NCBI GenBank assembly: GCA_009103225.1
Contig: RHPI01002823.1
Location: 381,104 to 445,103, forward strand
Direction of reading: 5' to 3'
Source: Chlorokybus atmophyticus
Lineage: Eukaryota > Plantae > Mesostigma and Chlorokybus algae
DNA: 64,000 nucleotides
Shown: piece after piece, positions 21,225-58,138 of the stretch
How the letters are laid out: each line of letters starts with the position of its first letter
Position numbering within the stretch: the stretch's first letter is position 1
Notes under the pieces: generated by a model
The model's input: the letters and a program-made list of their open reading frames with translations, nothing else
Database searches by the model: none
What the model was told of the DNA's origin: nothing
Translations under genes and position numbers: made by a program

Positions 21225-21249
21225 CACATGCTGTGTGCATCTGCTATTG

Positions 21250-30319: not shown

Positions 30320-30480
30320 GGTGCGGCAATTGTTGCACCAGTACTCCTCCATGGGTATTGCGTCCAATGGGGGCTCCAGACAGTAGCAATGCAGGCCGTT
30401 GTTACAGCCATCGCAAAGCATCATAAGTGCATCATCGCCGGCGCTACGGCAGCGTTCACAGCGTGTGCTGCGGGCGGGGC
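30320..30480 (-). pseudogene. PHD finger at the Gypsy integrase C-terminus (second copy at ~35650-35810)
   Basis: CERCRSAGDDALMMLCDGCNNGLHCYCLEPPLDAIPMEEYWCNNC is a canonical C4-H-C3 pattern. Confidence 0.92.
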
Positions 30481-30582
30481 GAGGGTGCTGGATGCGCGTG
30501 AAGCCTGCTATGTAAGGGAGGTGACATGGCGCGCAGTTCACCATATTGTCTTTCAGCCTCTCACCATTCTAACCAAGGAGAT

Positions 30583-33247: not shown

Positions 33248-35637
33248 TGTTGAAGGACTAGCATGCACATGTAGCTAAGGCAAGCATGGATGCACAGAGA
33301 CAGAGCTACCGCCACCAGAGCATACACAAGTCACATCACATTCATCTATTACAAGTTGTCCGCTGGTTCTTATACCAGCCAGTTACACACACGTCTACGT
33401 TTGCAAGCACTGCGTAAGCTATACTCAGCCTTTTGACGCGCTCTAAGCTGCGTTGTCTTTCTTACAACCAGAGCTTTCCAACAAGCTCTCACACGCCTAA
33501 TATGAGTAAGTATACGCGGAGATACGAAGCAGTTAGTAAGGCTCCAGTCTGGAGTCCGGAGTCTGGTCCGACGATGCCATCTTGCTAAGTCCGGACCTAG
33601 TGCTCGTCCTTACGACCTTCTACTCCTGTGTGGAGGGTCGATGCTGATCGTATGTAGGAATACTCTCAACACTCCCACGCGAGCAGCTTGACCTCCAACG
33701 CTTGCTCCTGTAGTCAAACACAGATGCCAAGTCCTGCACAACAAGTCTTGAACTTGAGTGGTGACAATGGCTTTGTCATGAAGTCCGCCAGCATGCCCTC
33801 GGTGTTGCAGTACTGGAACTCCACCTCCTTCCTTGTGACTCTGTCACGCACAAAGTGATGCATGACATCAATGTGCTTCGTCCTTGCTGAGGCGATAGGG
33901 TGCTTCAACAACTTGATGGCTCCTTGGTTGTCACAGTTGATGACGATGCACGCCATGGGGTGCTCCAAGTCTGCCATGAGCTTGCGAAGCCAGAGTGCCT
34001 CCTTCACTGCTGCTGCCGCTGCCATGTACTCAGCCTCTGATGTAGATGCTGCTGTTGTTGGCTGCAGCCTGCTGTTCCAGCTCACCACGCCTCCGTTCAG
34101 CTTGAAGACGTAGCCTGTAGTGGACCTCCTGCTGTTGAGGTCACCAGCAAAGTCCGAGTCGCAGTAGCCCTCCAACTCAGTGCTCCCGCTCCCAAACTTG
34201 ATGCCAACTGTTGCACTCCCAGCAACATAGCGTAGTACTCCCTTTGCTGCTCTCCAGTGCTCCATGCTCGGTGCAGACATGTAGCGAGCAAGTACTCCCA
34301 CAGCATGTGCAACATCGGGACGTGTGCACACTGCCAGATAGAGCATGCTGCCTACCAGCTCACCATATGGATACTGAGCCTTGTCGAGTACCTCCTCATC
34401 CTTTGCCTTGATGAGGGCAGTGCCAAGTGCCAACGGTGTGGTCTTGGTCTTCGCTTCAGTGAGCCCAAACTTGATGACGAGTCTTCTCACCATCTGCTCC
34501 TGACTGATCTTGATTGTGCGAGCAGCCCTGTCGCGCTCAATCACCATGCCAAGGAACCACTTGGCCTCTCCAAGATCACGAACTGAGAATGCTTGCTGTA
34601 GAGCAAGTTTCGTCTCCTGCAGGTGGTGCACCTGCCAGGCGGTGATGATGATATCATCAACATACACGAGCAGCCAGACCTTGTTGTCTGCATGGATGAA
34701 GAGCCCAGGGTCTGCAGAGGATGCGGTGAAGCCAAGTGCCTCCAGCTCCTTGGTGAGCTTGATGTGCCACATACGCGGTGCCTGTCGCAGCCCGTACAGT
34801 GCCTTGATCAGCTTGCACGCTGTGCCTCTCTCCCCTTCTTCATATCCAGGTGGTTGCTCGATGAAGATCTCCTCCTCCAGCTCTCCGTAGAGGAAGGCAG
34901 TCTTCACGTCCAGGTGATGCAGCTCTGGGTCTTCAGCAGCAACCATAGCTAACAGTGCACGGAAGGTGGTATGCTTACTTGCAGGTGCAAACACTTCGTT
35001 GAAGTCCACACCTTCCTGCTGCAAGAAGCCCTTTGCCACCAGTCTTGCCTTGTAGCGCTCAATGTTGCCCTGACCATCACGCTTCACCTTGAAGACCCAT
35101 TTCACTGGAATGGTCTTCACTCCTTGCGGTAACTGCTCCAGTGACCAAGTGTTGTTGGCATGGAGTGACGCAATCTCCTCGTCCATAGCACGCTGCCATT
35201 GCTCCGCATCTGGTGCTAACAATGCCTCCTCGTAGGTGCTTGGCTCCTCATTCTGCACACTGGCGACGTGTGCCTTGTGTAAGAAGTCAGGTGCCTTTCT
35301 CTCCCTCACTGGGTATCTCCGAGCTGCGTGCTCCTGCTGTGGGTACGGCCCCTCTTGGCCTGCTACAGCTGAGTCCTGCTCACCCTTGTTGTTGATGATG
35401 GCCTTGCCTGTAGCCTCCACCGTTTCAGGATGCTCCGGCTGTGCTTCATCTTCAGGAAAGAAGCCTGCTTCTGGTTGTGATAATCCCTCGTGGAAAACCA
35501 CCTCTATCTGGTGTGGCTCCATAGAAGTGCTCCCACGGAGTCTTCTGCTCTGAGCTCACCGGAGACCTGTTGCGGATGTAGTTGGCAGTGAGTACCGCCT
35601 CCTTCCACAAACTGTCTTCCATCTTTGTGTCGTTGAG
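33248..35637 (-). mobile_element. Partial Copia (3' LTR 33248-33671, RT/RNase H), part of the duplicated block
   Basis: 424-bp LTR TGTTGAAGG...CTCAACA preceded by GAGAG. ORF 33714..35522 has LLVYVDD, YCDSDFAGD and RTKHIDV motifs. Confidence 0.93.
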
Positions 35638-38600
35638 NAGTTGACCGCTGGTGCGGCAATTGTTGCACCAGTACTCCTCCATGGGTATTGCGTCCAATGG
35701 GGGCTCCAGACAGTAGCAATGCAGGCCGTTGTTACAGCCATCGCAAAGCATCATAAGTGCATCATCGCCGGCGCTACGGCAGCGTTCACAGCGTGTGCTG
35801 CGGGCGGGGCGAGGGTGCTGGATGCGCGTGAAGCCTGCTATGTAAGGGAGGTGACATGGCGCGCAGTTCACCATATTGTCTTTCAGCCTCTCACCATTCT
35901 AACCAAGGAGATTCAGCACTTTTGTGGGGTACACCTTGAGTACTTTGTAGACGGTGCGGCCCACGGAGGTGTCGAGCGTGTCTTTAATGGCTGCCATGCG
36001 GTAAGCAAAGTCACCTGTCCGGTGTGAAACCGCCGTTGGCGCTCCTTGTAGAAGCCGCTGCGCACGCGCTCGTAGCGCAGAATGTCACGATGCTGTGCGA
36101 TGCGCAGGTTGTGGAAGGCCATCGGGACGGTGTGCTCGAACAGCGTGGCACGTGTGATGATATCGTGATGCATCCAGTCGGGATCGTTGAGGTTGTCCAC
36201 CACGCGGTCTACTTCCTGCTGTGCACGCAACGGAAGCAACGGCGGACGCCCGAACAGCAAGTAGTATGGGCTGCACTCGCGCAGAGCCGCCTGGTTCGAC
36301 AATTCGTAGCCAAGAGCCACCCATGGAAGGTGGTCGTCCCTGGTGTTCTTCTCATAATCCAGCACGTATTTGCCGAGTGCCTTCTCGATAGTCTGCACCG
36401 TCCGCTCAGCGAGACCGTCGGGTTGAGGGTGGTCACGCGAAGTACGGCGGTGATCAATGTAGCATTTGTTCAGCAGGGTGTCGAACTCCCCTCTGAACTC
36501 GATGCCCTAGTTGGTAATGACCTCAGCGCAGCTGCCAAACCGGCTGAGGTTGTGGGAGAGGAAAGCTTGCGCCACCTCCCTGCTGCTCTTGTCGGGTAAT
36601 GGCACCAGCTCCACCCATTTGGAGAAGTGCTCGATCATGACCAGGATGTAGCGGTTGCCCCGCGCTGAGGGTGCCAAGTCTCCCAAAATGTCGAGTCCCC
36701 AGCGGTAGAACAGCCCAGAGATGGGAGAGGGTGCAAGGCGGCGCTGCGTGTGTTGAGGCTGGCACGTACCATGTCACACTGCTGGCAGCGACTGATGAAC
36801 CCCTGCACCTGTTTGGACAACCCATACCACCAATAATGCGCCCTTACCAGGCTGACGGTACACCTGACTCCGAAGTGCCCAAGCTCCGTGTGTAGGGCAG
36901 CGACGATGCCCTCGCATGTGGCTTGCGTTGGCACCTCCTTGTCCTCGTCCTGGAAGCGGCGGTACACTTTGTCACTCGCCCACCGGTGGTGGCGGGTTGC
37001 GCTGACTGACCCGATCTTTCTCTTGTGCACTCATATTGGAGGGGAGCTGGCCACTTTAAAGGAAGGGAAGTGTTGGCTTGTCCAGCCGTATGTCTTGCCT
37101 GGTGGTCGATGGGTGCCAGCTCGATGTCGTCGACTTCGATGTCGACCGCGTGGACGTCCCCTTGTGGTGTGATCACTGTGGGGTCGGTAGCCTTAAGGGC
37201 CGGAACCTCCTGTGTCGTTGAGGTGGTGTTGATCTGACGCCCTGACCGTAACGCGGCAGCAGCAGACATGGCTCCCATGGTGGGAGCCACTGCTGCGGGG
37301 CCGAGCTCGTGCCAAGCTCCGGTTGCATTGTAGGTACTGCGGTGAGGGTTTCAACTAAGACCATCAGCGTCCTGGTTGGTGAGGCCGGCGCGGTGGTCGA
37401 TCTCGAAGTCATACTCCTGAAGCAACAGGGCCCAGCGAGCACGTTTCCCTGTCAGATGTTGGTTGGTCATTAACCATTTGAGTGGCTGATGATCGGTGAT
37501 CAGCTGAAAGTGTCGACTAAAAGGGAAAGGTCTGAAAAAGGAGATAGCCCATACTGCGGCGAGGCACTCCCCCTCGTAGCTGCTGTAGTTGGCCTCAGCA
37601 CTGTTGTTGCTCTGGCTGGCGTATGACACCACCCGCTCCTTCTTGTTCTCATCGTGCTGTACCAGCACAGCCCCCATCCCAAGTTTGCTCCAGTCGGTGT
37701 GGAGAATAAAAGGCTTGTTCTAGTCAGGCCGTTGCAGGATGGGAGCGGTGGTGAGCCTGCCCTTTAGCTCCTCAGACGCCTGCTGTTGTGGCCCCTTCCA
37801 CGCAAACTCCATCTCTTGCTTCAGGAGCTCGGTGAGGGGTCGCGCGATCTTTGCAAAGTCCTTCACGAACCGACGAGTAGTAGTTGACAAGGCCCAGAAA
37901 GGCACGCAGACGCGTAAGGTCTGTGGGAGCAGGGATAGCCGCCAAAGCCTCCACCTTTGCCTGCTGTACGTACACACCGTGAGGCACAATCATGTGCCCT
38001 AAGTAGGGTACCTTGCGAGTGAAAAGGTGCACTTGTTGGGGTGCACTGTCATCCCCACCCCCTTGAGTCTCCAGCACTTCCTCGATGTGCTGCAGGTGCT
38101 CGTCGTTGCTGCGACTGAAGATGAGAACGTCGTCGATGTAGCATCGCGCAAAGTCCAGCCCCTTGAAGGCTTTGTCCATGACGCGCTGGAACTTGGCAGC
38201 AGCATTCTTCAGTCCGAAGTGCATGACCTTCCACTGATACAGCTGCCGATTGCCCCAGAAAGAGGTCTTGTGCTTGTCCTCCTCCTTGATGGCAATCTGG
38301 TGGTACCCTTGTCGCATATCCAGGATGCTGAAGACGGTGCAGTCTCCTACATCATTTGGGATACCCTCTGCAATAGGCATTGGCTACCTATCTTGTTTTG
38401 TCTTGTTCTTTAAGGGGGCGATAGTCGCCGCACATGCGCCGGTCAGTTGCTTGCTAAGTCCTTATTTAGGGGCATGACGGTCGCGGCCGCAAAGTCCGAT
38501 GTGGACACCTCAATCAGGCTTGCATCTAACAGAGCCTTGCACCTCTGCTTCACCAAGTCTTCTTTCAACTTGGAGAGTGTTGAAGGACTAGCATGCACAT

Positions 38601-39043
38601 GTAGCTAAGGCAAGCATGGATGCACAGAGACAGAGCTACCGCCACCAGAGCATACACAAGTCACATCACATTCATCTATTACAAGTTGTCCGCTGGTTCT
38701 TATACCAGCCAGTTACACACACGTCTACGTTTGCAAGCACTGCGTAGGCTATACTCAGCCTTTTGACGCGCTCTAAGCTGCGTTGTCTTTCTTACAACCA
38801 GAGCTTTCCAACAAGCTCTTACACGCCTAATATGAGTAAGTATACGCGGAGATACGAAGCAGTTAGTAAGGCTCCAGTCTGGAGTCCGGAGTCTGGTCCG
38901 ACGATGCCATCTTGCTAAGTCCGGACCTAGTGCTCGTCCTTACGACCTTCTACTCCTGTGTGGAGGGTCGATGCTGATCGTATGTAGGAATACTCTCAAC
39001 ACTCCCACGCGAGCAGCTTGACCTCCAACGCTTGCTCCTGTAG

Positions 39044-42000
39044 TCAAACACAGATGCCAAGTCCTGCACAACAAGTCTTGAACTTGAGTGGTGACAATGG
39101 CTTTGTCATGAAGTCCGCCAGCATGCCCTCGGTGTTGCAGTACTGGAACTCCACCTCCTTCCTTGTGACTCTGTCACGCACAAAGTGATGCATGACATCA
39201 ATGTGCTTCGTCCTTGCCGAGGCGATAGGGTGCTTCAACAACTTGATGGCTCCTTGGTTGTCACAGTTGATGACGATGCACGCCATGGGGTGCTCCAAGT
39301 CTGCCATGAGCTTGCGAAGCCAGAGTGCCTCCTTCACTGCTGCTGCCGCTGCCATGTACTCAGCCTCTGATGTAGATGCTGCTGTTGTTGGCTGCAGCCT
39401 GCTGTTCCAGCTCACCACGCCTCCGTTCAGCTTGAAGACGTAGCCTGTAGTGGACCTCCTGCTGTTGAGGTCACCAGCAAAGTCCGAGTCGCAGTAGCCC
39501 TCCAACTCAGTGCTCCCGCTCCCAAACTTGATGCCAACTGTTGCGCTCCCAGCAACATAGCGTAGTACTCCCTTTGCTGCTCTCCAGTGCTCCATGCTCG
39601 GTGCAGACATGTAGCGAGCAAGTACTCCCACAGCATGTGCAACATCGGGACGTGTGCACACTGCCAGATAGAGCATGCTGCCTACCAGCTCACCATATGG
39701 ATACTGAGCCTTGTCGAGTACCTCCTCATCCTTTGCCTTGATGAGGGCAGTGCCAAGTGCCAACGGTGTGGTCTTGGTCTTCGCTTCAGTGAGCCCAAAC
39801 TTGGTGACGAGTCTTCTCACCATCTGCTCCTGACTGATCTTGATTGTGCGAGCCGCCCTGTCGCGCTCAATCACCATGCCAAGGAACCACTTGGCCTCTC
39901 CAAGATCACGAACTGAGAATGCTTGCTGTAGAGCAAGTTTCGTCTCCTGCAGGTGGTGCACCTGCCTGGCGGTGATGATGATATCATCAACATACACGAG
40001 CAGCCAGACCTTGTTGTCTGCATGGATGAAGAGCCCAGGGTCTGCAGAGGATGCGGTGAAGCCAAGTGCCTCCAGCTCCTTGGTGAGCTTGATGTGCCAC
40101 ATACGCGGTGCCTGTCGCAGCCCGTACAGTGCCTTGATCAGCTTGCACGCTGTGCCTCTCTCCCCTTCTTCATATCCAGGTGGTTGCTCGATGAAGATCT
40201 CCTCCTCCAGCTCTCCGTAGAGGAAGGCAGTCTTCACATCCAGGTGATGCAGCTCTAGGTCTTCAGCAGCAACCATAGCTAGCAGTGCACGGAAGGTGGT
40301 ATGCTTACTTGCAGGTGCAAACACTTCGTTGAAGTCCACACCTTCCTGCTGCAAGAAGCCCTTTGCCACCAGTCTTGCCTTGTAGCGCTCAATGTTGCCC
40401 TGACCATCACGCTTCACCTTGAAGACCCATTTCACTGGAATGGTCTTCACTCCTTGCGGTAACTGCTCCAGTGACCAAGTGTTGTTGGCATGGAGTGACG
40501 CAATCTCCTCGTCCATAGCACGCTGCCATTGCTCCGCATCTGGTGCTAACAATGCCTCCTCGTAGGTGCTTGGCTCCTCATTGTGCACACTGGCGACGTG
40601 TGCCTTGTGTAAGAAGTCAGGTGCCTTTCTCTCCCTCACTGGGTATCTCCGAGCTGCGTGCTCCTGCTGCAGGTGCGACTGCTTGTCTGCTACAGTGGAG
40701 TCCTGCTCACCCTTATCGTCGATGATGGCCTTGCCTGTAGCCTCCACTGTTTCAGGATGCTCCGGCTGTGCTTCATCTTCAGGAAAGAAGCCTGCTTCTG
40801 GTTGTGATAATCCCTCGTGGAAAACCACCTCTATCTGGTGTGGCTCCATAGAAGTGCTCCCACGGAGTCTTCTGCTCTGAGCTCACCGGAGACCTGTTGC
40901 GGATGTAGTTGGCAGTGAGTACCGCCTCCTTCCACAAACTGTCTTCCATCTTTGTGTCGTTGAGCATGGCTCGAACACGCTCCAAGAGTGTCCTGTTGAG
41001 GCGTTCAGCTGCTCCATTCTGCTGCGGGGTGTAGGGTGCCGTTGTCTCGTGGCGTATGCCCTTGCTGGCGAAGAACTCCTTCAACTCCTTGTTGATGTAC
41101 TCCCCTCCTCGATCACTCCTCATTGCCTTCATCTTGTTGCCAGACTGCGTCTCCAACAAGGCCACGACTGTGCGCACAGCTCCAGCAACTTCTGACTTGA
41201 GCGTCAATGGAAAGATGATGGACAGCTTGCTGTAGTCGTCGAGCAACGTAGCAAAGTACCTGGCCCCTCCCTTCGCCACAATGCGCATAGGGCCATAGAC
41301 ATCCATGTGCACAAGCTCGCAAGGATGCTGACTGCTAGAAGAGGATGATGGGAATGGCATAGCATGCTGCTTTGCAACCAGGCATGGTTCACAAAGTGCA
41401 CCTGATGCATTCTTGAGTTCTTCTGTGCTGAGATGGATGCCCTTGACCATCTTCTCAGCGACAAGGCGAGTGAGGTTGACGTAGCTGAGATGCCCGAACC
41501 TTCGATGCCACAATGTTGGCGACTCCTTGTCCTTCACCACCATGGCTTGAATGTCTATGTCTTGAGGCTGCTCCACGTGGTAGAGCCCTCCCGGATCAGC
41601 GATTCCAACCATGTGCACGACCCCATCAAGGATGACTGAGCAGCCACCCTTTCGAAATAGGATCTCCGCGCCTAAGCGCTCCGCAACCCTCACAGAGAAT
41701 AGACTCGCAATAGCCTTAGGAACATGCAGGACGTTGCGTAACAACACCTCGCGTAGTGTGTTACCAACCTTGCACTGGAGTCGTATGTTGCCAACTCCCT
41801 CAGCCACCAGTACTTCGCCACCGAAGCCCGCCACCTTTATTGTAGACGTCAGCTTCCTGTAGCCCTCCATCACCTCCTTGTTTGGTGTGAGATGACGATC
41901 GCAGCCAGAGTCCACCACCCAGAAAGCTGTGCCCGCCCTCGAACTGGATGCAGTGAAGGCGACATGTTTCTCCTTGTGTTGGTGCTCGTTGCCGCTGTTG

Positions 42001-42764
42001 CTGGTGCTTGCTCTAGGTTGCCCCTGTTGTTTCTTCCTACAGTCCTTCACAATGTGCCCCTTCCAACCACACCAGTGGCATGTGAGGTCTTTGTGACGAG
42101 GATTGCCTGGCTTGTTGCCCTTGTACTTCTCTTCATGGTTGCTCTTCTTTGCGTGCTTGCCGGTGTAGAAGGCGACGGCATCCGCTTGCTCGTCCTTCTT
42201 CACAACCCTCTGCTCCACGGTGAGCAGCTTCGGTAGCACATCGTCCAACGTCAACTCCGATGATGACGTCTCCAGCAGGGTTGCGACGACCTCGTACTCT
42301 GCTGGTAGCCCTGCAACAATGGCCAGCACTACCTCCGTCTCCCCCATGTTGTGGCCGACGTTGATGAGGTCCGCCCACAGCTCTCTCGCGCGCGCAACAT
42401 ACTTTGTGATGGGTTCTGCTGCCTCCTTCCTGAGTGCGCTGAGCTGCTTGCGTAGATGCAACTTTCTGGCATTGTTCTTGGCTCTGAAAACGGCTGATAG
42501 CTTTTCCCAAGCTTGTCTACCATCTTCACATGCAGTGAGCATGGGAAAGTGATGCGGTTTGCTGTTCAACACAAGCAAAGAGTGTGCTTCTGCTGAATGC
42601 TCTGACCACACAGTGTTCGCTCCTGGTGTTGGTGGTGGTGCCTTCGGATCAACGTACTTCCACACCTTCTTGTGGATGAGCAAGGCCTTCATCTCCACGC
42701 ACCATGTGTTGTAGTTGTCGGTGTCCAGCTTTGCAATCTGCCCCTTGTCGTAGGTCGCCTCCAT
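39044..42764 (-). pseudogene. Copia gag-pol of unit A, broken by a 167-bp deletion at ~40834
   Basis: ORF 40779..42848 (gag, protease, integrase core) and ORF 39044..40849 (RT, RNase H). The junction acctct|atctgg lacks the equivalent of 45147-45313. Confidence 0.93.
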
Positions 42765-43357
42765 TTCTGTCGAGCCTGCCTTTCTTGCAGTTGACACCCA
42801 AGGCTCTGCTACCAACAAGCTACCGTAGTGTAGAACTACTATGCACACAAGCTAGTCTCACACTCCTCAAGCGTAGTGTGGGCCCATAACCTGTTGAAGG
42901 ACTAGCATGCACATGTAGTTGAGGCAAGCATAGATACACACGGACAGAGCTACCGCCACCAGAGCATACACAAGTCACATCACATTCATCTATTACAAGT
43001 TGTTTGCTGGTTCTTATACCAGCCAGTTACACACACGTCTACGTTTGCAAGCACTGCGTAAGCTATACTCAGCCTTTTGACGCGCTCTAAGCTGCGTTGT
43101 CTTTCTTACAACCAGAGCTTTTCAACAAGCTCTTACACGCCTAATATGAGTAAGTATACGCGGAGATACGAAGCAGTTAGTAAGGCTCCAGTCTGGAGTC
43201 CGGAGTCTGGTCCGACGATGCCATCTTGCTAAGTCCGGACCTAGTGCTCGTCCTTACGACCTTCTACTCCTGTGTGGAGGGTCGATGCTGATCGTATGTA
43301 GGAATACTCTCAACACTCCCACGCGAGCAGCTTGACCTCCAACGCTTGCTCCTGTAG

Positions 43358-46300
43358 TCAAACACAGATGCCAAGTCCTGCACAACAAGTCTTGAACTTG
43401 AGTGGTGACAATGGCTTTGTCATGAAGTCCGCCAGCATGCCCTCGGTGTTGCAGTACTGGAACTCCACCTCCTTCCTTGTGACTCTGTCACGCACAAAGT
43501 GATGCATGACATCAATGTGCTTCGTCCTTGCCGAGGCGATAGGGTGCTTTAACAACTTGATGGCTCCTTGGTTGTCACAGTTGATGACGATGCACGCCAT
43601 GGGGTGCTCCAAGTCTGCCATGAGCTTGCGAAGCCAGAGTGCCTCCTTCACTGCTGCTGCCGCTGCCATGTACTCAGCCTCTGATGTAGATGCTGCTGTT
43701 GTTGGCTGCAGCCTGCTGATCCAGCTTACCACGCCTCCGTTCAGCTTAAAGACGTAGCCTGTAGTGGACCTCCTGCTGTTGAGGTCACCAGCAAAGTCCG
43801 AGTCGCAGTAGCCCTCCAACTCAGTGCTCCCGCTCCCAAACTTGATGCCAACTGTTGCGCTCCCAGCAACATAGCGTAGTACTCCCTTTGCTGCTCTCCA
43901 GTGCTCCATGCTCGGTGCAGACATGTAGCGAGCAAGTACTCCCACAGCATGTGCAACATCGGGACGTGTGCACACTGCCAGATAGAGCATGCTGCCTACC
44001 AGCTCACCATATGGATACTGAGCCTTGTCGAGTACCTCCTCATACTTTGCATTGATGAGGGCAGTGCCAAGTGCCAACGGTGTGGTCTTGGTCTTCGCTT
44101 CAGTGAGCCCAAACTTGGTGACGAGTCTTCTCACCATCTGCTCCTGACTGATCTTGATTGTGCGAGCCGCCCTGTCGCGCTCAATCACCATGCCAAGGAA
44201 CCACTTGGCCTCTCCAAGATCACGAACTGAGAATGCTTGCTGTAGAGCAAGTTTCGTCTCCTGCAGGTGGTGCACCTGCCAGGCGGTGATGATGATATCA
44301 TCAACATACACGAGCAGCCAGACCTTGTTGTCTGCATGGATGAAGAGCTCAGGGTCTGCAGAGGATGCGGTGTAGCCAAGTGCCTCAAGCTCCTTGGTGA
44401 GCCTGATGTGCCACATACGCGGTGCCTGTCGCAGCCCGTACAGTGCCTTAATCAGCTTGCACGCTGTGCCTCTCTCCCCTTCTTCATATCCAGGTGGTTG
44501 CTCGATGAAGATCTCCTCCTCCAGCTCTCCGTAGAGGAAGGCAGTCTTCACATCCAGGTGATGCAGCTCTAGGTCTTCAGCAGCAACCATAGCTAGCAGT
44601 GCACGGAAGGTGGTATGCTTACTTGCAGGTGCAAACACTTCGTTGAAGTCCACACCTTCCTGCTGCAAGAAGCCCTTTGCCACCAGTCTTGCCTTGTAGC
44701 GCTCAATGTTGCCCTGACCATCACGCTTCACCTTGAAGACCCATTTCACTGGAATGGTCTTCACTCCTTGCGGTAACTGCTCCAGTGACCAAGTGTTGTT
44801 GGCATGGAGTGACGCAATCTCCTCGTCCATAGCACGCTGCCATTGCTCCGCATCTGGTGCTAACAATGCCTCCTCGTAGGTGCTTGGCTCCTCATTGTGC
44901 ACACTGGCGACGTGTGCCTTGTGTAGGAAGTCAGGTGCCTTTCTCTCCCTCACTGGGTATCTCCGAGCTGCGTGCTCCTGCTGCAGGTGCGACTGCTTGT
45001 CTGCTACAGTGGAGTCCTGCTCACCCTTATCGTCGATGATGGCCTTGCCTGTAGCCTCCACTGTTTCAGGATGCTCCGGCTGTGCTTCATCTTCAGGAAA
45101 GAAGCCTGCTTCTGGTTGTGATAATCCCTCGTGGAAAACCACCTCTCTGCTCACGATGATCTTCTGAGTGTCCTCGAGCAAGATCCTGTAAGCCTTGGAA
45201 CCCGGTTCATAGCCAACGAAGATGCCCTTCTTGCTGACCGGCTCCAGCTTGTGCCTGAGCTGTTTAGGCACTAGTGCATATGCCGTGCATCCAAACACAC
45301 GCATACCACTCACATCTGGTGTGGCTCCATAGAAGTGCTCCCACGGAGTCTTCTGCTCTGAGCTCACCGGAGACCTGTTGCGGATGTAGTTGGCAGTGAG
45401 TACCGCCTCCTTCCACAGACTGTCTTCCATCTTTGTGTCGCTGAGCATGGCTCGAACACGCTCCAAGAGTGTCCTGTTGAGGCGTTCAGCTGCTCCATTC
45501 TGCTGCGGGGTGTAGGGTGCCGTTGTCTCGTGGCGTATGCCCTTGCTGGCGAAGAACTCCTTCAACTCCTTGTTGATGTACTCCCCTCCTCGATCACTCC
45601 TCATTGCCTTCATCTTGTTGCCAGACTGCGTCTCCAACAAGGCCACGACTGTGCGCACAGCTCCAGCAACTTCTGACTTGAGCGTCAATGGAAAGATGAT
45701 GGACAGCTTGCTGTAGTCGTCGAGGAATGTAGCAAAGTACCTGGCCCCTCCCTTCGCCACAATGCGCATAGGGCCACAGACATCCATGTGCACAAGCTCG
45801 CAAGGATGCTGACTGCTAGAAGAGGATGATGGGAATGGCATAGCATGCTGCTTTGCAACCAGGCATGGTTCACAAAGTGCACCTGATGCTGTCTTGAGTT
45901 CTTCTGTGCTGAGATGGATGCCCTTGACCATCTTCTCAGCGACAAGGCGAGTGAGGTTGACGTAGCTGAGATGCCCGAACCTTCGATGCCACAATGTTGG
46001 CGACTCCTTGTCCTTCACCACCATGGCTTGAATGTCTCTGTCTTGAGGCTGCTCCACGTGGTAGAGCCCTCCCGGATCAGCGATTCCAACCATGTGCACG
46101 ACCCCATCAAGGATGACTGAGCAGCCACCCTTCCGAAATAGGATCTCCGCGCCTAAGCGCTCCGCAACCCTCACAGAGAATAGACTCGCAATAGCCTTAG
46201 GAACATGCAGGACGTTGCGTAACAACACCTCGCGTAGTGTGTTACCAACCTTGCACTGGAGTCGTACGTTGCCAACTCCCTCAGCCACCAGTACTTCGCC

Positions 46301-47244
46301 ACCGAAGCCCGCCACCTTGATTGTGGACGTCAGCTTCCTGTAGCCCTCCATCACCTCCTTGTTTGGTGTGAGATGACGATCGCAGCCAGAGTCCACCACC
46401 CAGAAAGCTGTGCCCGCCCTCGAACTGGATGCAGTGAAGGCGACATGTTTCTCCTTGTGTTGGTGCTCGTTGCCGCTGTTGCTGGTGCTTGCTCTAGGTT
46501 GCCCCTGTTGTTTCTTCCTACAGTCCTTCACAATGTGCCCCTTCCAACCACACCAGTGGCATGTGAGGTCTTTGTGACGAGGATTGCCTGGCTTGTTGCC
46601 CTTGTACTTCTCTTCATGGTTGCTCTTCTTTGCGTGCTTGCCGGTGTAGAAGGCGACGGCATCCGCTTGCTCGTCCTTCTTCACAACCCTCTGCTCCACG
46701 GTGAGCAGCTTCGGTAGCACATCGTCCAACGTCAACTCCGATGATGACGTCTCCAGCAGGGTTGCGACGACCTCGTACTCTGCTGGTAGCCCTGCAACAA
46801 TGGCCAGCACTACCTCCGTCTCCCCCATGTTGTGGCCGACGTTGATGAGGTCCGCCCACAGCTCTCTCGCGCGCGCAACATACTTTGTGATGGGTTCTGC
46901 TGCCTCCTTCCTGAGTGCGCTGAGCTGCTTGCGTAGATGCAACTTTCTGGCATTGTTCTTGGCTCTGAAAACGGCTGATAGCTTTTCCCAAGCTTGTCTA
47001 CCATCTTCACATGCAGTGAGCATGGGAAAGTGATGCGGTTTGCTGTTCAACACAAGCAAAGAATGTGCTTCTGCTGAATGCTCTGACCACACAGTGTTCG
47101 CTCCTGGTGTTGGTGGTGGTGCCTTCGGATCAACGTACTTCCACACCTCTTATGGATGAGCAAGGCCTTCATCTCCACGCACCATGTGTTGTAGTTGTCG
47201 GTGTCCAGCTTTGCAATCTGCCCCTTGTCGTAGGTCGCCTCCAT
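43358..47244 (-). CDS. Copia Gag-Pol of unit B (1262-aa open frame; 1-bp deletion near 47148 separates the first ~32 codons)
   Basis: CHWCGWKGHIVKDC knuckle, VVDSGC protease, LWHRRFGH, rve D-D-E region, YVDD RT and RNase H are uninterrupted. The probable start MEATYDKGQ at 47244 lies in another frame. Confidence 0.93.
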
Positions 47245-48138
47245 TTCTGTCGAGCCTGCCTTTCTCGCAGTTGACACCCAAGGCTCTGCTACCAACAAGC
47301 TACCGTAGTGTAGAACTACTATGCACACAAGCTAGTCTCACACTCCTCAAGCGTAGTGTGGGCCCATAACCTGTTGAAGGACTAGCATGCACATGTAGCT
47401 AAGGCAAGCATGGATGCACAGAGACAGAGCTACCGCCACCAGAGCATACACAAGTCACATCACATTCATCTATTACAAGTTGTCCGCTAGTTCTTATACC
47501 AGCCAGTTACACACACGTCTACGTTTGCAAGCACTGCGTAGGCTATACTCAGCCTTTTGACGCGCTCTAAGCTGCGTTGTCTTTCTTACAACCAGAGCTT
47601 TTCAACAAGCTCTTACACGCCTAATATGAGTAAGTATACGCGGAGATACGAAGCAGTTAGTAAGGCTCCAGTCTTGAGTCCGGAGTCTGGTCCGACGATG
47701 CCATCTTGCTAAGTCCGGACCTAGTGCTCGTCCTTACGACCTTCTACTCCTGTGTGGAGGGTCGATGCTGATTGTATGTAGGAATACTCTCAACAGAGAG
47801 TCGGTACTGTCGTCAAAACACCGGTTTGGTGTCCACCAACTCGATGTCCATCTGGTAAACTGAGCAAACCTCCAGGTTCCTTACGTTGAAACTAAACTGA
47901 GTTCTCTTCTTGTTGAGGAGAGCCTTCAGTTGTTCTCGCGTCTGGCCTGTAGCCAGCGGTCCAATGGCATGGGAGCAAGAGGTGGCGTTGGCAACCACTA
48001 GGATGTCCTCGACAGTGACTGCTGCCTGCTCCTCCGTATGGACGATTTCGAGGGCGGTGTGTGCCGCTTTGGTCTCTGCACGCGATCGGCCCACCCCCCT
48101 GCCAGGTGTTCGAGCTCCAAGAAGGACACATGGCGGTC

Positions 48139-49115
48139 TTAGAGAGCAAAGCACATTTCTAACAACCATAACATGCTGTTCCGATCCATGGCGCGTCCAA
48201 ATAATTGGCATTGCTGATTGTCGGTCAGCGTGGAATCTGTGATTCTGCTTGGAGAGAATCCCATGGCGCGTTCGCGCTCACGTGCGTTGGGTTCCTCCAG
48301 CTGGCCTGTGCTAGAATCCAACACCATGCCTGCGCCGTGGTTGCGGAAGGCGTACGATCCTGGGTAGGACACCAGCGTGGGGAGCGCACGAGGTGGTTGC
48401 CCAGGCTGGTTGCACTTGTAGAAGTGGTGGTGATCGCGTTGGGTGACTAGTTGTGCTCTTTAACCAGGGTCCAGGATAGCATCGACTGTCAAATTGCGTG
48501 GACGACTGCTGTGCAAATATTCAGCAGCAAAGAGATTTTTGATTGTTGCCAGGTTGGTCCACTTGGCGCGGACACGATGAGCACGGGAGCCATGCCGCGC
48601 TGCATTAATTTTGAGAGGATGCCCCAGTAAGGAACACACCTGTCGGAAGTTGTTGGCCACGTGATGGCGCTTATCGACCTCGGAGTGCACATTCTCGATG
48701 ATGTATCCTGGAGGCCTGAACAGCAGGTTGCTCTGCAGAATTTTGATGACACGCATCCGTTTTCAGAACAATTGCGAGCGAGGGTCAACGAGTCCTTTGC
48801 CGCTGCCTGCTCTGGAGTGTTCTTAACACTCCCATCCTGCTATCAGCAGGTTTATGTTGCCCACTACTAGGAGGTGATCCGCAATGATTAAACGGATGTC
48901 CTGTGGTAATGCCTTCAGGCTGCCTTGCAGTGCCGATACCGGCAATCGCTGCGGGTAGCCTTTGTGTAGGTGGCGCAGGTGGTGGCCCAAGGCAATATGT
49001 GCGTGTAGATCAGGGTCGCAGTAGAAGTACTTGGTAACCGTCGCGCCGGTGTTGAGGACAGCACCGAGGCCACTACCTATTCCTCCGAATAATTCCAACA
49101 TGGTGATGCCTTGTT
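48139..49115 (-). pseudogene. Cytosine-5 DNA methyltransferase domain (DNMT3-like motif layout) inside Gypsy pol
   Basis: Motif I ITMLELFGGIGSG; II KYFYCD; III PQDIR; IV LLIAGWEC*EHSRAG..GL.DPRSQLF; VI YIIENV; VIII AHRVRAKWTN; IX RERERAMGF; X QLFGRAMD. All are in canonical order, with stops and frameshifts. Confidence 0.92.
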
Positions 49116-49599
49116 GTCGCGGAAACACGTGAAACTCCACTACGCCAGTGGCCACCTGGTGTTGTTCCTGGACAGCAGCTTGGTCCTTGTAGAGAGGGAA
49201 CCGTGAAGTGAGCCGCGGTCTGGTCAGTAGCAGATGGGCGACCACCTGTGCGCGCCAGCGGCATTCCGCTGGTTGCTGGTGGGCCACTTCCTCAGTGGCA
49301 TTTTTCTGAGACTCGTCGTATGGGATTGGAGAGTCTTGGTTTGCGTCGTGGGTGACCACCGCAAATGATCTGTCAGTGGTTGTCGAGCCCGACCTGTGGG
49401 TGGCTGTTGCAGCTGACTTGTCAGTGGTTGCCGACAACGACCTGTAGGTGGTTGTTGCAGCTGACCTTTGGTGGGAGCGAGTGCAAGCCACCAACTCGAG
49501 AGGCAGATATCCTTGAACCTCTCCGTCCTCCTCATCCCAATGAAGACAAAACCAGGCCTTCTCTGTCCAGCAGTCTAGCCCCATGCCAACAAGGAAGTG

Positions 49600-49950
49600 G
49601 AAGTCCTGTTCCAACAGCAGGTCGAAGGATCCTGCGTCGGTGACTACACAAATCTGTATGACCTCGGTGATGTGGAACGGGTCCACTCCTGTCTAGCGAA
49701 TGCAGAGGACTTGCTTGGTGATGCCGATCACCTTGTCACGGCTGCCGGTTGCGGTGTCGAGCACGTATGGGCACGGCATCAGCTCAGCGCTGGTGATGCC
49801 AAATGCACGTGCGAGGTAACGTTTGATGATGACAAGCTGGGCTCCAGAGTCCAGCATTACCCGCTTGGGTGCTTGCCCATTGATCGTGACATGCTTGCCT
49901 TGGTTGGCGGTCATAGCCGCGTTGGCGTGGATGCGCAGCCGATTGAATTG
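49600..49950 (-). pseudogene. Retropepsin-type protease of the DNMT-Gypsy
   Basis: VTINGQAPKRVMLDSGAQLVII..., followed by VVTDAGSFDLLLEQDF (flap/DxLLGxDF-like). Confidence 0.8.
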
Positions 49951-52064
49951 TCGGTAGCGGGTGCATGGGGTGTCTCCTGCTGCAGTCTCCTCCGATGGTG
50001 TCAAGCGCAGTGGGGCAAGCGCCTCTCGACCAGCTGGGTATTGAGCACCTCTTTGACCGCGGCCTGGCCCGAACCGTCCTTGTCTTGGCTGTTGATGAAC
50101 ATGCTGTGGCCTGGGTGCTGGCGGTGCTGCTTGTAGTTGTCCTGGTTGCGGTGCCGGGGGATTGCGTCTCTGTGTGGCCGGGGTCATTCCTGGCGGCGTG
50201 GCCAGTGGCTGCTGGGGAATCCCTGAAGGACCGGGTGTTTGTGGGCCCGCCTCCCGTGCGGCCTGTTCTTCCACATAAGTCCAGCGTACGGCATGAGCTG
50301 CCTCCCTAACCAATGTACCTTCCCATGTGGCTCTTGGGTTGTTGATCACATCACTCCACCGACGAGTCTGAGGCATGGGCTCGAAATACACTGCGCGAAG
50401 GAGCCTCGCTCTTATGTCGTAGGTGATGGTGGGAACCCTTAGAATCCCTGTGTAGGAATCCCATCTGCCATTGACCACTACCACCTCCAACACCGTTGTT
50501 GCTCGCGCCCGCACAGTGAGGAAAATCTCTGGCTGTTGAACATGCTGCTGTAGGCAGCTGAGATACGTCTGCGTTGCCGCGCTGCTTCCACCCCTGGCAA
50601 CCTCAATATGGCCTCTTGTACTCCTTCTAAGGTGTTGGTGGATGTTGAGGCAACCTTGTCATAGGCTTGCCGTAGTGACAGCAGGAAGGCGTCCACTCAG
50701 AGCCATCTGGTGCTGAAGGCGAGCAGGGGGATTGCGGGGTAATTGGTGACTAGCCAAGTCAGCAGTCTTGCTCGAGCTGCGTTACCACCTCCTCGCATCC
50801 CCAGCATCCGCCTCAGGCCGATGCCTGTGCAGCATGGTTGCTTGTTGCAACAGGGCAGTACGTAGTTGCTGTTCCCCAATTGAACCTGTTTCATCTCGTT
50901 GTGTCCACCCTTGCGCTGTGAGGTAGCCTCTCCCTAAATTACGTTGATTTTCAGGCAAGTCTTACAACAAGGCGGGTAGCAGCGGGGCGATCACCCCCGT
51001 GGTTCATTGGGCCAGCGCCCTCGTCTGGTCACCATTGGGCCCACCAACGAGAGGTGTTGTACTGGATGATGGGCCAGCGGCTGTTGGCTGAAGAAGGCCA
51101 GCGCGAGCGCATCGGCAAGGGCGTGCGCTCTTGCGTCGATGGCCGCCGCTTGATCTTGTCGCCAGATGAATGCCTGTTCCAGCGCGGTGTAGCGCTCATG
51201 ACGTCGAACGGTATGGAGGGACCTCAGTGCTTCATTGTCACCCAGAGGCATGTCGGTTGTATCAGTGATGTGCTGCTGTACGTTGGGTTGCCGGTCCCTA
51301 TACGTGTCAAGTGGGCTGGGATCAAAGGGTTCGTGACGGACTGGTGTGGGTTGGCGTGGCGCCGTCTGCATATCGTTATGCAGAGTTTAGAACAACTGCA
51401 GTGTCAGCTCCAATACGACAGGCGTTCTGATAACGAAGACACGGTCTCGCATAGGAGGTGCCGTGCCGGCGAGAATTTTATCCTCCAGTTGTCGCTGAGT
51501 CTGGTCTGGCAGCGTGTGATATTCAGGCAGTAGGAAGACTCGATCACTGCGTTCAATGCGTGTTGTGCACTCCCCTCCTCGCCCCAAAGCAATGGTAGTG
51601 GGATCTGCCCCATGCATAATGGTCTCCCCGGCACGCTCAGCTTGCCGACCTCGCTGGACAGCCTGAGTGACGTCAAGGGCGGGCAATGTAGTTGAGCGTG
51701 TTGCTGCAGCGATAGCAGGCTCGATAATAGCACTGTCGGTGGTGGCGCGAGTGCCGCTCAATGGCGCGAGAGTGGTCTCAACGCCTGCTGGCACAGGGAG
51801 TGATGTTGGAGTGGGATCGGTGTGATCTACGCCTGCAGAGTCGGTAACGGCAGTGGTGGCTGTTGTCTGCGTGCTCACCAGTGTGGGCGCGACGGTGCTC
51901 ACTGGTAGACCAGTTTTTGGTGAGATTGGAACAGTCCCTGCTAGCGTCGACGAAGTTGACGTCGTAGCCGGTGTGACCGTCTCGGCTGGTGTAGTGCCAC
52001 TGGTGGCTTCAGAGGAGGTGGCTGCTGACGATGTTGCGGCTTTCCCTCAGACTCGCCGGGATGG

Positions 52065-53900
52065 TTAAATACGCGACGGAGTGCTGGTGTCTCTCGTGCG
52101 CTTTGGAGCCATCAGAGCCCACCGGGCAAAGTAACAGGCGCGGTAGTCCTGCTCCTTGTCTTCCTCCCAGCGTGCCATTCGTGCCATGAGGGCAGCCATA
52201 TGGTCATCAGCTAGCGGTTTAGCTGGAGCCTTGGCGGCAACAGCAGCAGCGCGCGGACTTCCTTGCAGTCCCTTACGTTGAGGAGGGCAATTCCTCCCCT
52301 TGTAGCCTTGCTTTTCCTTGCGAGCGTTGAAGTAGTTGTTAGTGTAGTTATGGCCTCCGGTGTGATTGTTGTTGTAGCCACCAGCGTTGTTGCCGTTGTG
52401 GCCTCCAGTGTTGTTGCTGTTGTAGCCACCAAAGTTGTTGCCGTTGTAACCACCAGAGTTGTTGCCGTTGTGGCCTCCAGTGTTGTTGCTGTTGTAGTTG
52501 TTGACGGGTCTCAACTCGGGGAACTTGAGCCAGCAGACGGACTCCAAGTGGCCTGTCTTGTGATAATAGTCGCAGGCAGAGTTGAGTACTCTTTGGTGCA
52601 CCCCTTTTGGTAGTGCCCATGCCGTCCACAGTGATAACACAGCACAGGGGCAGACAGAGCAGTATGCGCTGACCGTTTCCCTTTGTCGCGTGCTGGTGGA
52701 GCGTCGCAGCCACATTCGCGGCGCGGAGGCTCGATAGTTGGGCTGGCTACAGGCCGTGAGGCGCTGCGGTTGGTATCCAGCAATGCCTTCTCATACACCA
52801 AGCGCTTATGGATGGCTTGTGCAGTCTCAAAAGCTTCCTTGAGCGTGTAGCCAAGGGGCCTGCTGTAGTTCACGGTCAGGCGCGTCGACTCGCTCAGGGT
52901 GGCATCCAAGTCGTTGACATATACCACTGCGGCCGCCTCATTGCTGACGATCTTGTAGTCAGTGTTCTTCAACAGCCCTTCCAGTTTGAAGTACAGGCGT
53001 GGGGGGTCCTCATTGGGCTTGCGCCGGAACCGCCTCAACTCCTCCACTTTACTAGTGGTCTGCAGTGGGAAGGTGCGACGAAGTGCAGCGTATAGATCCT
53101 TGAGTGGAGAGTCAGAGATGGCAGCACCTACAGTGATGGCTGGTGCGTGCAGTGCAACTGACCCAAAGGTGAAAGCACTGCCTCCCGCACGAGAGCCAGG
53201 TGTTGCCATAGGTAGGGGCGTGCCCACCTCAACGGCTGCAATTCATTGTTCCTCAAGGATGGCAGCAAAACGATCCAGAATCCGGGCCCGTCGCGCGGCC
53301 ATCTTGATCTCGATCTCTACAGGGGTCAGGTTGACAATCACCAACTCCGGTTCCTCCTCCTCTGCTCTGTCAATGGCTGCCGCTATGGACAACCCGGTAA
53401 CCGCAGTGGGGGTGGCAGGTGAAAAGACGGCTACTGGACTGTGCAGTGATGCATGTGCTATGGTACTGGCGAGCTCGCCATAACCATTAACTCGATGCAG
53501 TTCAGCAACATACTTCTAGACATCATGTGCTTCATGGTCTAGATACTGAGCAGCAATGTGAAAAGAGATCTCATCTGACGTCTTTGTTCTTCAGAGCCTG
53601 ATGTCGCATCTTGGAGTGGAACTTAATGATGGATCCGTCCAGAGAGGTAGTGCCAGCACGTCTGGAGAAGCGCAGAAACGTGGTTGAGCTGGAAGACTCC
53701 ATCTCATAGTCGTCACTGTCGGACGAGAGTGGGGAAGCTCGATGTAGTGGAGTGGACAGGAACGGAGTGAAGTCGGAGACAGCACGTGAGCCCTTGCTGC
53801 TACGATTGTTGCTCCCGTCGCTGGTCCGCTCGTAGGTGAGGTTGGAGGTTGGGCTCCAACTGCTGAGGTCACCCTCGTCTATTGGAGAGAACGGGGTGGG
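52065..53900 (-). pseudogene. Gag of the DNMT-Gypsy, with two zinc knuckles and an N/G-rich repeat tract
   Basis: LRRFRRKPNEDP..LYFKL (retrotransposon gag-like), CYHCGRHGHYQKGC, then frameshifted CDYYHKTGHLESVC followed by NNxGG[HY]N repeats. Confidence 0.8.
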
Positions 53901-55269
53901 CCTGCTCATACAGCTAGTCCAGAGGTGAAAGTGTATGCAGGGTTGAGTGTTTGTGCTCTATCGCCTGTCTCGATGCCGCTATCACTCACCACACTAGTGG
54001 TTATGTGCGCACTATGTAATGACAGTGATAACGAATGCCCAGGGATGTGTCCCCAAATATAGACTGCACTTATTTGATGCAGAATGCCACACACTCACTT
54101 GAGCAAAGAGGGTGACATTGTGAGTCAACAAGCTACTACTATAGGTACGGATGTTTACACAGTTCTTTGCATGAGCGGAAAATGTGTTCCGCTGTTAAGT
54201 GAGGTGAATGAGCAAGCAACACGTGGATACTATGCCCTGACTGATGCCCACAAACACACTGCAACCAGGCACACCAGGCTCACAGCGATAACAAGCAAGA
54301 TGCACACGAGCATGCACAGGCTCTCACACAGTAAGGGGGTTCTTGGTAACCGGGATGGCGTGTTCGTAGTTCAAGTCGTTTCACAAGCTCTTAGCTTTCT
54401 CACTCACAGTGTCACCAGCTGATCCGGTGAAAACTGAGACTACTTATACAAGTTAAATCATGACTGTCTAGAATATAAGCTAACGGTCATATCGAGGCTG
54501 TTTCCACAGCGATTGTCACTCGATATAGAACACAACTTATAATTGAACTCACAACTGAACAGCTACGCGCGGTGCTTTTGGGCTATGGTCGTGGGCTACC
54601 CTGAAGTCATGACCTAGCTACTGTCAGGGACGCGCGCGCGTTAATATGTCGGTAGGCCGGGCGCCGATTTTGATGTAGACATGCCCGATGAAGGCTGGTA
54701 TGTGTGGGCACCAGGCATGACATCTTCCACAATTGCTGTGCAGAAGCTGGCGTTTACGGAGGCAGTCTCACCCTTGCTGGGCCATACATATTGCTGCGCC
54801 GCCACTATTGCGGGCAGATCAACCCACATGCACAAGGCCGGGGGCATGCAACCCAAAGCATTGCAAACACTTGAGATAACAAGCCGCCATCAATTTCTGT
54901 GGAACAAGACAGTGAATTCACCGTGAGGGTGGATATCAAGCACTATCCGCACAATAGCTATTAGCACGACAACAGTGTCGCAACAGCGTTACACAAACAG
55001 TACCTTCACAATGCTGCCATAGCAACATAATTTCATAGTTTTCAGACATGTGCACATGATGTTAAGCATGCACTGTCGCGTCATCAGAAAAATGTGGGCT
55101 CCAGTATCAATTTGAGTACACAAAGCATGAGTTGAACAATTGTGAGTGGACGGGAATCGTTGTAATGTTGCTTCGCAAAAATGGACCACAACAAGATAAC
55201 AACGATTTTTGAACGCTACTGCTTGATAATTGCTGACAAATTGTTATTAACAGCTTGTCCATTTTTAAG

Positions 55270-55623: not shown

Positions 55624-57071
55624 ATGGCTTGAAATAAGTGTTCATATTGTGTCGCAATGTAGTGTGTAATACATATCAACATGTGCAAAGCACGAAGGAC
55701 TTGCATGAATTATACACTGCTTGCCCTGGATGATCGCATGAACGGTTGCAAGTCAGCGGCTAGCTAAAAGCGCTCAAGCTATTTAGATGAGCAGCTCGCT
55801 ACCCTATAATATATAATAATACAGCATATAAACGGCATATTGTGGAGTATAACCCATCTCTCAAGACTTTGTATATATGCGTAACCGTGATGCCGAGCTG
55901 TGAGTGTGTGTAAGATGGTAACTGAAAATTGCACAATGGCGGTACATGCTGGACTGGAAGGACCATGCATAGAAGCATAGAAGACGCATGGTATGTCAGT
56001 GTAGAGGCCCGTCCCTGTTGGCCATACATATGTGACATTCGCAAACATGAGGCAAGCAGCATCATGTTCGGTCTTGATGGATATTGACGCTGTCGATGAT
56101 GTGCAGGTAAACCGTAAATGCATGCATACATGTAAAGAATGGTATGGCTGTACATCTAGCGTTTGTGCTGGCAGTTCAGCCCTATAGTCATGCGTTGGCG
56201 TGAGGTAAATGTTTGTTGTATAGCGTGGCAAAGTGGTGTGTAAAGCATGCCATGCTTTGCACACCGCACTATGCAACATGTGCGAAGCAGCAGCTGCATG
56301 CTACACTCCTTGCATGGCATGCATTACCGAGTGGCCATTTGCGCCGCGAATTGTTTGCCTGGCGTTGTCAGCGCAAAACCGTCGACGTCGTCCCTGAACT
56401 CGCCTTTCTGCGGCCCCGCAGTGGTTTTGTATCGACGTCGATTGTCGGCCCAACAACAGCTGCTGTACCATGCGTAACACATTTGACTGGCGAACCGATC
56501 GACTGGTCAATATGGCCGGCAACCCACACGACCACCATCGTTGCACCGGTCTGTCAGACTCATGCAACTGATACCGTTCGATTGCCTATCGTGACGTCGG
56601 CATGGCGTCAGCAGCCCGCCCTCTGAATCAGCGGCTCTGCATAGATCTGTCCCATGCGAGATTTGGAGCTATCCGGCTACAAGCAAGGATATTCATTAGA
56701 TTCACACCCCACACTGTGGCGCCTGCAATATCCGCGTCGCTGACGGCAAGTCGCAGCCAGTCAGTCAGTCAGTCAGTCAGACAGTCGACTGCCGACTGTG
56801 ATCGGACCGTTTACCCATCACAATCTACCCGTTGGCAGCTGGGGAGTGAGGTTGGATTCGACCGTTGCTCGGTTTGCTGGCCGCGTCACGGGCACTCACC
56901 TCCGACTCTGACCGAACTGAGCGGGACACCACTGAGCAGAGGCCGTGGGGCCTACTACTACTTGTAGTGCCAAATAGCGAGGGAGTGCGCAAGTTGGTGT
57001 CTAGTGTTGTAACCTGCAGCGCGTCGAAGGTTGAAGCCGTAGTGAAGGCGGCGTGTGTTGCGTGTGTTGCC

Positions 57072-58138
<1,067 letters not shown>

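Follow-up and report, generated by a model that had tools for sequence, protein, structure and literature searches.

In a window of 64,000 nucleotides from the alga Chlorokybus atmophyticus, the whole stretch of DNA analysed here, a degenerate Ty3/Gypsy retrotransposon carries a cytosine-5 DNA methyltransferase (DNMT) domain inside its polyprotein, between the protease (PR) and the reverse transcriptase (RT). This DNMT is an old, selected cargo that has descended together with the RT and is not a separate insertion; the family is widespread, with hundreds of relatives, and the window copy is dead and cannot make its proteins. In intact relatives the enzyme is probably released from the polyprotein, packaged, and employed to methylate the new cDNA.

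The DNMT domain occupies 48142..49110 on the minus strand, and motifs I-X follow each other in order within one frame, as the initial annotation had read them: LELFGGIG (49098-49075), AGWEC (48840-48826) with the catalytic cysteine codon at 48828-48826, ENV (48696), AHRVRAKWTN (48582), ERERAMGF (48279) and QLFGRAMD (48207). The catalytic Cys, ENV and RxR of the C5 methyltransferases (PF00145) are all present, with motif IV reading Glu-Cys (E-C) and not the Pro-Cys (P-C) of these enzymes. Three internal stops (48825, 48765, 48462) interrupt the frame and a further one (48141) terminates the domain; with the stops read as X, PF00145 is matched above the cut-off (E 1.2e-7), while the three stop-free pieces, searched singly, gave no domain match. 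The best sequence match in the PDB is DNMT3A (E 9e-4), which has the motif VIII pattern AHRxRxxWxNL in common with the window domain. An AlphaFold2 model, based on a 24-row alignment (pLDDT 83.9), is predicted to lie closest to DNMT3B (Z 27.4, rmsd 2.8, 275 aligned) and DNMT3A (Z 26.5), followed by M.MpeI (25.2), HhaI (22.0), DNMT2 (20-21.6), DNMT5 (19.1) and DNMT1 (18.6). All 34 of the Foldseek PDB matches listed are DNMT3 enzymes, and the viral structural matches are weaker (TM at most 0.59). Closest fold and closest sequence agree, and the domain may be termed DNMT3-like, a call that draws on structure and motifs, the bacterial CpG enzyme M.MpeI trailing by about 1-2 Z units.

The aspartic protease (49534..49941, minus strand, DSG at 49854) shares the frame of the DNMT, one stop (49695) lying between. 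It is preceded on the same strand by a long degenerate gag-protease spacer, rich in Ser/Thr and Pro/Gln (49942..52067), for which the ESM Atlas gave no match, and by a degenerate gag-like region with one or more zinc knuckles (52068..53957), recognized by eye against the relative L005 and by a weak zf-CCHC match; 11 relatives gave no tblastn match in this region. Past the gag zinc knuckle, five tandem units of 24 nt (52337-52504) encode a Gly/Asn-rich stretch. On the other side of the DNMT, the linker and RT start (47796..48141, minus strand) contain a frame break in the window copy, and the remaining domains are found at 38572-35650, past a Copia block of 9.2 kb, again on the minus strand: the frameshifted RT (37877..38572, YIDD at 38140), the RNase H (37345..37725), the integrase (35988..37030; H2C2 zinc finger and core, with frameshifts and one stop) and, just past the latter, a PHD finger (35650..35795), such that the element does end in the integrase-PHD arrangement claimed for it. 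The order gag-PR-RT-RH-INT of Ty3/Gypsy elements is present, the gag being tentatively assigned.

The young Copia block (38578..47795, minus strand) bears the target-site duplication (TSD) CTCTC on both sides and interrupts the RT start. It is arranged in tandem, LTR-unit-LTR-unit-LTR with one unit deleted; its three LTRs of 424 bp each (47372-47795, 42892-43315, 38578-39001) are 97-99% alike, and an open frame of 1263 aa is located at 43358-47149. The motif TGTAA occurs 4 times in the Copia LTR vs 0.5 expected (6 of 5000 single-base shuffles), and 113 times window-wide vs 112 expected. Contigs of two sequencing runs (X1 and X2, from two studies, two contigs each) join 38572 directly to 47796. 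They cover 30 of 30 bins of the stretch, and their identity to it varies, as it should in a family with multiple copies. Among the 40 of 57 between-copy differences listed are the domain-end stop and the linker frame break, the three internal DNMT stops falling outside these 40; other copies also differ within the stop at 49695. The stops, the frameshifts and the Copia insertion from which the initial annotation had concluded that this copy is dead were all recovered.

The RT-to-PHD half is repeated as a 5330-bp tandem duplication (30306-40964) with an N at the seam (35638). Its second copy (30306..35637, minus strand, 99.4%) comprises the Copia 3' half together with RT, RNase H, integrase and PHD, and may represent a tandem duplication or an assembly product. 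In this nest of elements, with its N seams and near-perfect duplication, one could suspect that the DNMT is a mere passenger, i.e., a separate insertion or an assembly chimera, all the more since 23 of the 25 nearest RT proteins lack a DNMT in their own frame. However, the shared protease frame, the contig joins in two studies, the existence of unbroken natural polyproteins, the purifying selection and the congruence of the DNMT and RT trees described below make such an origin very improbable. The DNMT shows no borders of its own, neither TSD nor TIR, as a separate insertion would have. Thirteen of the 23 RT proteins were inspected; they start at most 205 residues before the RT and can therefore be understood as second frames or fragments, and the RT nearest to that of the window, P0017, is DNMT-bearing.

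Elsewhere in the window, two degenerate DIRS-like elements (17115-22519 and 25909-27888), about 82% alike and with short repeats between them, contain RT, RNase H-like and recombinase-like frames. A perfect inverted duplication of 550 bp (24803-25904) ends at an N (25905); together with the 5330-bp tandem duplication it probably marks assembly joints. Positions 6750-8550 and 9293-11817 are occupied by a further Gypsy element, degenerate and with RNase H and integrase, and by another Copia family; no DNMT match was obtained in either. Two host genes were recognized, one on the plus strand (57070-58138) for a membrane protein of no known family, with ESM Atlas scores under 0.9, and one on the minus strand (61500-63340) for an intron-split actin-related protein. 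The richness of the latter gene in introns, the composition and the relatives all point to a probable green algal host, TGTAA adding a weak signal at best.

Homologue searches provided 35 longer proteins from 3559 candidates and 28 of similar length from 2469, and 599 cluster representatives were taken at E 1e-30 or better. Among 599 metagenome stretches 92 loci were confirmed and 80 kept, and a further 4 of 113 in MAG contigs were added; locus searches with a single protein gave no relatives in 135 metagenome stretches and one weak relative in 8 viral stretches. Three viral loci from the alignment search were rejected as distant methyltransferases without retroelement domains. The DNMT domain was present in 241 of the 256 proteins collected (a redundant set), which speaks against the possibility that other members of the family lack it. 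In 56 of these 241 the DNMT follows the protease or precedes the RT as in the window (type A), in 106 it resides between RNase H and integrase (type B), 4 have a Dam domain, and 75 consist of the DNMT alone. With regard to the proposed check for an intact single frame, the relative P0054 is one unbroken protein of 2300 aa with the complete order gag-PR-DNMT-RT-RH-INT-PHD, collinear with the window element from protease to PHD. The feature that defines the Gypsy-DNMT3 elements, a DNMT in frame with RT and RNase H, is found in the unbroken P0054, P0017, P0011 and P0154, the frame of the window copy being broken. A type-B member comes from Scenedesmus sp. PABB004 (KAF8056149.1), and RT frames of Coleochaete scutata and Closterium NIES-68 fall within the type-A clade, although these frames themselves contain no DNMT.

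Some relatives deviate from these two layouts. P0035, P0076 and P0077 are DIRS-like frames that combine an RT and the family DNMT, on the type-A side, with a Dam adenine methyltransferase, and the type-B polyproteins P0025, P0028, P0029 and P0074 carry add-ons, either a G-patch that follows the DNMT or, in P0025, a Tudor-like domain that follows the PHD. In L007 an additional frame of 713 aa (10033-12174) separates the PHD from the terminal repeats, and L031 (1-10135) contains a 3.6-kb direct duplication with identical RT. L005, L006, L007 and protein P0088 are retrotransposon contigs in bacterial MAGs or bacterial-named proteins, likely eukaryotic contamination. DNMT3-like 'genes' in green algal annotations and bacterial MAGs, as in these four cases, can be parts of retrotransposons.

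The catalytic machinery is conserved throughout the family. Both the catalytic Cys, the absence of which from the consensus would have spoken against the annotation, and the Glu of ENV are kept in 148 of 148 aligned DNMTs, and both Arg residues of motif VIII in 146. Of the 148, 78 have Glu and 61 have Pro immediately before the catalytic Cys, and the P-C and E-C forms occur side by side in both clades. Over 56 pairs at dS 0.05-2, drawn exclusively from the 35 loci with a stop-free DNMT, dN/dS amounts to 0.04-0.54, and to 0.08-0.16 in five type-A pairs; in these relatives the DNMT is under purifying selection, with values somewhat above those of RT and integrase. Trees were calculated from 100 rows for RT plus RNase H and from 148 rows for the DNMT (161 sequences with a known architecture, reduced by similarity thinning; another 44 without a known architecture were dropped). 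In each tree one change separates the A and B positions. The SH-aLRT is 99 in the RT tree for a group of 33 out of 34 A-side rows, and in the DNMT tree it is 99 for B; both are rapid reconstructions that rely on one long outgroup, and they are equally compatible with gain, move or double capture. L031n, the intended DNMT-less neighbour, proved identical to L031, which leaves the RT tree without a Gypsy outgroup that lacks a DNMT. Where an element has both domains (78 elements), the DNMT and RT trees share 25 of 75 splits; of the 20 strong DNMT splits, 17 are also present in the RT tree, and strong splits never contradict each other; the Mantel correlation between DNMT and RT is 0.66, a value reached in 0 of 999 permutations.

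Ends of the element type are seen in the relative L062, which has a 4-bp TSD (AAGG) and repeats in the order A-coding-B-A-B, with A at 1679-2012 and 10353-10686 and B at 10238-10350 and 10693-10805. An exact match to the B-A junction GACAGCTGTC occurs in 13 of the 35 PHD-bearing loci, with both clades represented, vs 0.075 in shuffles; the junction is palindromic and usually preceded by C, giving a CpG. Repeats and junction match the DIRS-like repeats of KnitGypsy-Dnmt3 and tie both clades to that kind of element. In the window, a candidate 5' repeat A of 313 bp, TGTCA...TGACA, was tentatively placed at 54410..54722, and a polypurine tract (30258-30246) is followed by a candidate repeat B (30011..30258), the end at 30011 being tentative, both on the minus strand; a second copy of repeat A and the B-A junction were not found there. 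The flanks of the candidate ends 54722 and 30011 match at 3 of 4 bases, a level that chance could give, and a search of the window for an LTR pair of the element found none (score 38 vs up to 43 in shuffles). The sequence TGGTGAC at 54417 may possibly represent the putative end of repeat A or a putative tRNA primer site. Compared with Phygy, the moss non-chromovirus clade of REXdb with its 4-bp NCGN TSD and tRNA-Trp primer site, the one TSD read (that of L062) is likewise 4 bp long but reads AAGG.

The E-C form in 78 of 148 sequences, together with the palindromic, usually C-preceded junction that recurs in both clades (13 of 35 loci), raises the question of whether chemistry or substrate has been altered, such that the protein would bind or flip cytosine at the repeat junction during split-repeat replication, act on RNA or RNA-DNA hybrids, or convert C to T, instead of producing ordinary 5-methylcytosine. 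The window element shows no CpG depletion, and KnitGypsy-Dnmt3 had no activity in yeast (PMC5890265), which would fit such a change. On the other hand, the SAM-binding motif I is retained along with the Cys, ENV and RxR, both clades contain P-C as well as E-C forms, and the predicted fold is that of a complete DNMT3-like domain; altered chemistry is accordingly regarded as improbable, and methylation of new cDNA as the preferred activity.

In a subclade of type A the DNMT is followed by an in-frame stop. It stands at a fixed distance before the RT in all 18 type-A loci having both DNMT and RT, in the form TAG-CAR-YYA at 369 nt in 6 loci and TAR-CAA-CCC at 348 nt in 12; these 18 represent a few families, drawn by an alignment rich in that subclade, and are not a census. 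The stop also occurs in 6 of 9 type-A loci without RT, and no such stop was detected in 33 type-B loci (12,876 bp). The codons after TAG vary (CAA TCA, CAG TTA, CAA TTA) with the pattern kept, and in L005, L009 and L011 this stop is the sole one in about 1700 codons, a second in-frame stop being present in L010. A genetic code with TAG as Gln was rejected for these relatives, one in-frame stop in about 1700 codons facing 65-80 ordinary Gln codons (L005, L009, L011). CAR-YYA after UAG is the readthrough signal of TMV (PMC2754532), and stop-separated frames (gag/pol or pol/env) are described for Tca2, SIRE1 and MuLV (PMC2194720); the relatives share with these systems the in-frame stop and the CAR-YYA context, but in them an enzyme domain precedes the stop, which separates the DNMT from the RT. 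Readthrough would place the DNMT at the level of Gag and the RT at a fraction of it. In the family of 12 loci with TAR-CAA-CCC an ATG follows two codons past the stop, so that reinitiation is a rival to readthrough there. The window's own family seems to be without the stop: neither TAG-CAR-YYA nor TAR-CAA-CCC was found in the window linker (47796..48141), and its nearest relatives, P0017 and P0054, are uninterrupted at this place in the translations given by their sources.

The nearest solved relatives of the window PHD are those of KMT2D/MLL3, BAZ2A, WSTF, UHRF1/2 and KDM5, and a Trp two residues before the zinc-binding His occurs in 1 of 79 family PHDs, features which we take to mark readers of the unmodified H3 tail. 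In animal DNMT3 this tail is read by the ADD domain. Coupling of a DNA-methylation writer with a histone reader, as the initial annotation envisaged, can be no more than a hypothesis, since PHD fingers are common accessories of algal transposons (PMC8557442), and the pairing of PHD and DNMT, which is found in both clades, may be incidental.

Translation as a polyprotein and release of the parts by the protease are general Ty3/Gypsy biology, and the DNMT would be liberated by this route and enclosed in the particle. There it would methylate the new cDNA, probably at CpG, as suggested by DNMT3 and by the yeast assay of SymbioDIRS-Dnmt3, with the consequence that the copy would enter the genome already marked and might pass as host DNA or be tolerated. 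The PHD might bind the unmodified H3 tail and in this way steer integration or dock the enzyme. In the window element, CpG observed/expected is 0.69-0.78, and in its DNMT-less neighbours, the window's two Copias and second Gypsy element, 0.54-0.58; a ratio above that of the neighbours is the opposite of a self-methylation scar. Mutation spectra between the duplicated window elements were too sparse or flat for a signal of CpG methylation to emerge. One should also consider that the enzyme might act on chromosomes rather than cDNA, silencing integrated copies of its own element or competitors and thereby limiting harm to the host, a benefit discussed in PMC5890265. The kinship of the PHD with chromatin-reading PHDs and its company with the DNMT in both clades agree with this, as does the subclade stop after the DNMT, which would give a surplus of enzyme over RT. 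Yet a DNMT that forms part of the gag-pol polyprotein is well placed for packaging, the PHD is joined to the integrase and not to the DNMT, the window element has not lost CpG, and the methylome of K. nitens is ordinary and plant-like despite such elements (PMC5890265); action on chromosomes is considered unlikely, and packaging with methylation of the cDNA remains the favoured role.

A more comprehensive picture, offered with considerable doubt, can be drawn from these data. An old, integrase-using clade with split repeats would span both halves of the green lineage and hold the DNMT3-like enzyme as a component of the particle, at two positions in sister clades and, in one subclade, at Gag level ahead of a leaky TAG-CAR-YYA; the integrase-linked PHD would replace the ADD domain, and copies might already be methylated when they arrive at nucleosomes whose H3 tails are unmodified. 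According to PMC5890265, it is unclear what role retrotransposon-borne DNMTs play. Intact natural elements are numerous in this family, which also offers enzymes of the P-C and E-C forms, two domain positions, a putative built-in stoichiometry switch and a culturable chlorophyte member (Scenedesmus); the idea of self-methylation thereby becomes testable.

With respect to known systems, the literature searched, with most subscription journals, theses and Repbase outside its coverage, held no report of a chlorophyte Gypsy-DNMT3, of two domain positions in Gypsy elements, or of a leaky stop after a DNMT. Apparently new, within this literature, are the two sister clades that differ in where the DNMT sits, the chlorophyte member from Scenedesmus, the PHD of the putative unmodified-H3 type and the subclade with a fixed stop of the leaky type, although a key KnitGypsy figure may pre-empt order and PHD. 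The class as such, as the initial annotation had pointed out, is already known from KnitGypsy-Dnmt3, SymbioDIRS-Dnmt3 and SymbioLINE-Dnmt (PMC5890265). PHD accessories are likewise carried by REM1 and other Chlamydomonas transposons, and the passages on them mention no methyltransferase (PMC6673714, PMC8557442). Cymbomonas and Euglena contain EpiLTRs (bioRxiv 10.64898/2026.05.21.726589), of which one belongs to a chlorophyte, that also unite an LTR element with a cytosine methyltransferase and a histone reader; however, their DNMT is sister to DNMT4, a DAM is carried and the reader is a chromodomain, and they are set apart there from Gypsy-DNMT3, listed as streptophyte. In the window element there is no DAM match, the PHD sits at the integrase end, and the DNMT fold is predicted to be DNMT3-like. 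SymbioDIRS-Dnmt3, with de novo CG methylation in yeast, and SymbioLINE-Dnmt resemble the present family in placing a DNMT in a retrotransposon, SymbioDIRS also in having two domain orders, but they are built on a dinoflagellate DIRS (tyrosine recombinase) or LINE chassis, in contrast to the protease, DDE integrase and PHD found here (PMC5890265). The closest counterpart is KnitGypsy-Dnmt3 of Klebsormidium nitens (de Mendoza et al. 2018, PMC5890265), a Dnmt3-related DNMT in a Gypsy Pol polyprotein, with conserved catalytic residues, Ka/Ks below 0.2 and DIRS-like repeats combined with Gypsy domains; its lack of methylation in yeast was called inconclusive by the authors. Compared by description, its text presents one streptophyte and mentions no PHD, second domain position or DNMT-RT stop, and its figure may show order and PHD. 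What both have in common is a DNMT within a Gypsy polyprotein, conserved catalysis, selection and, in L062, the A-coding-B-A-B arrangement of repeats.
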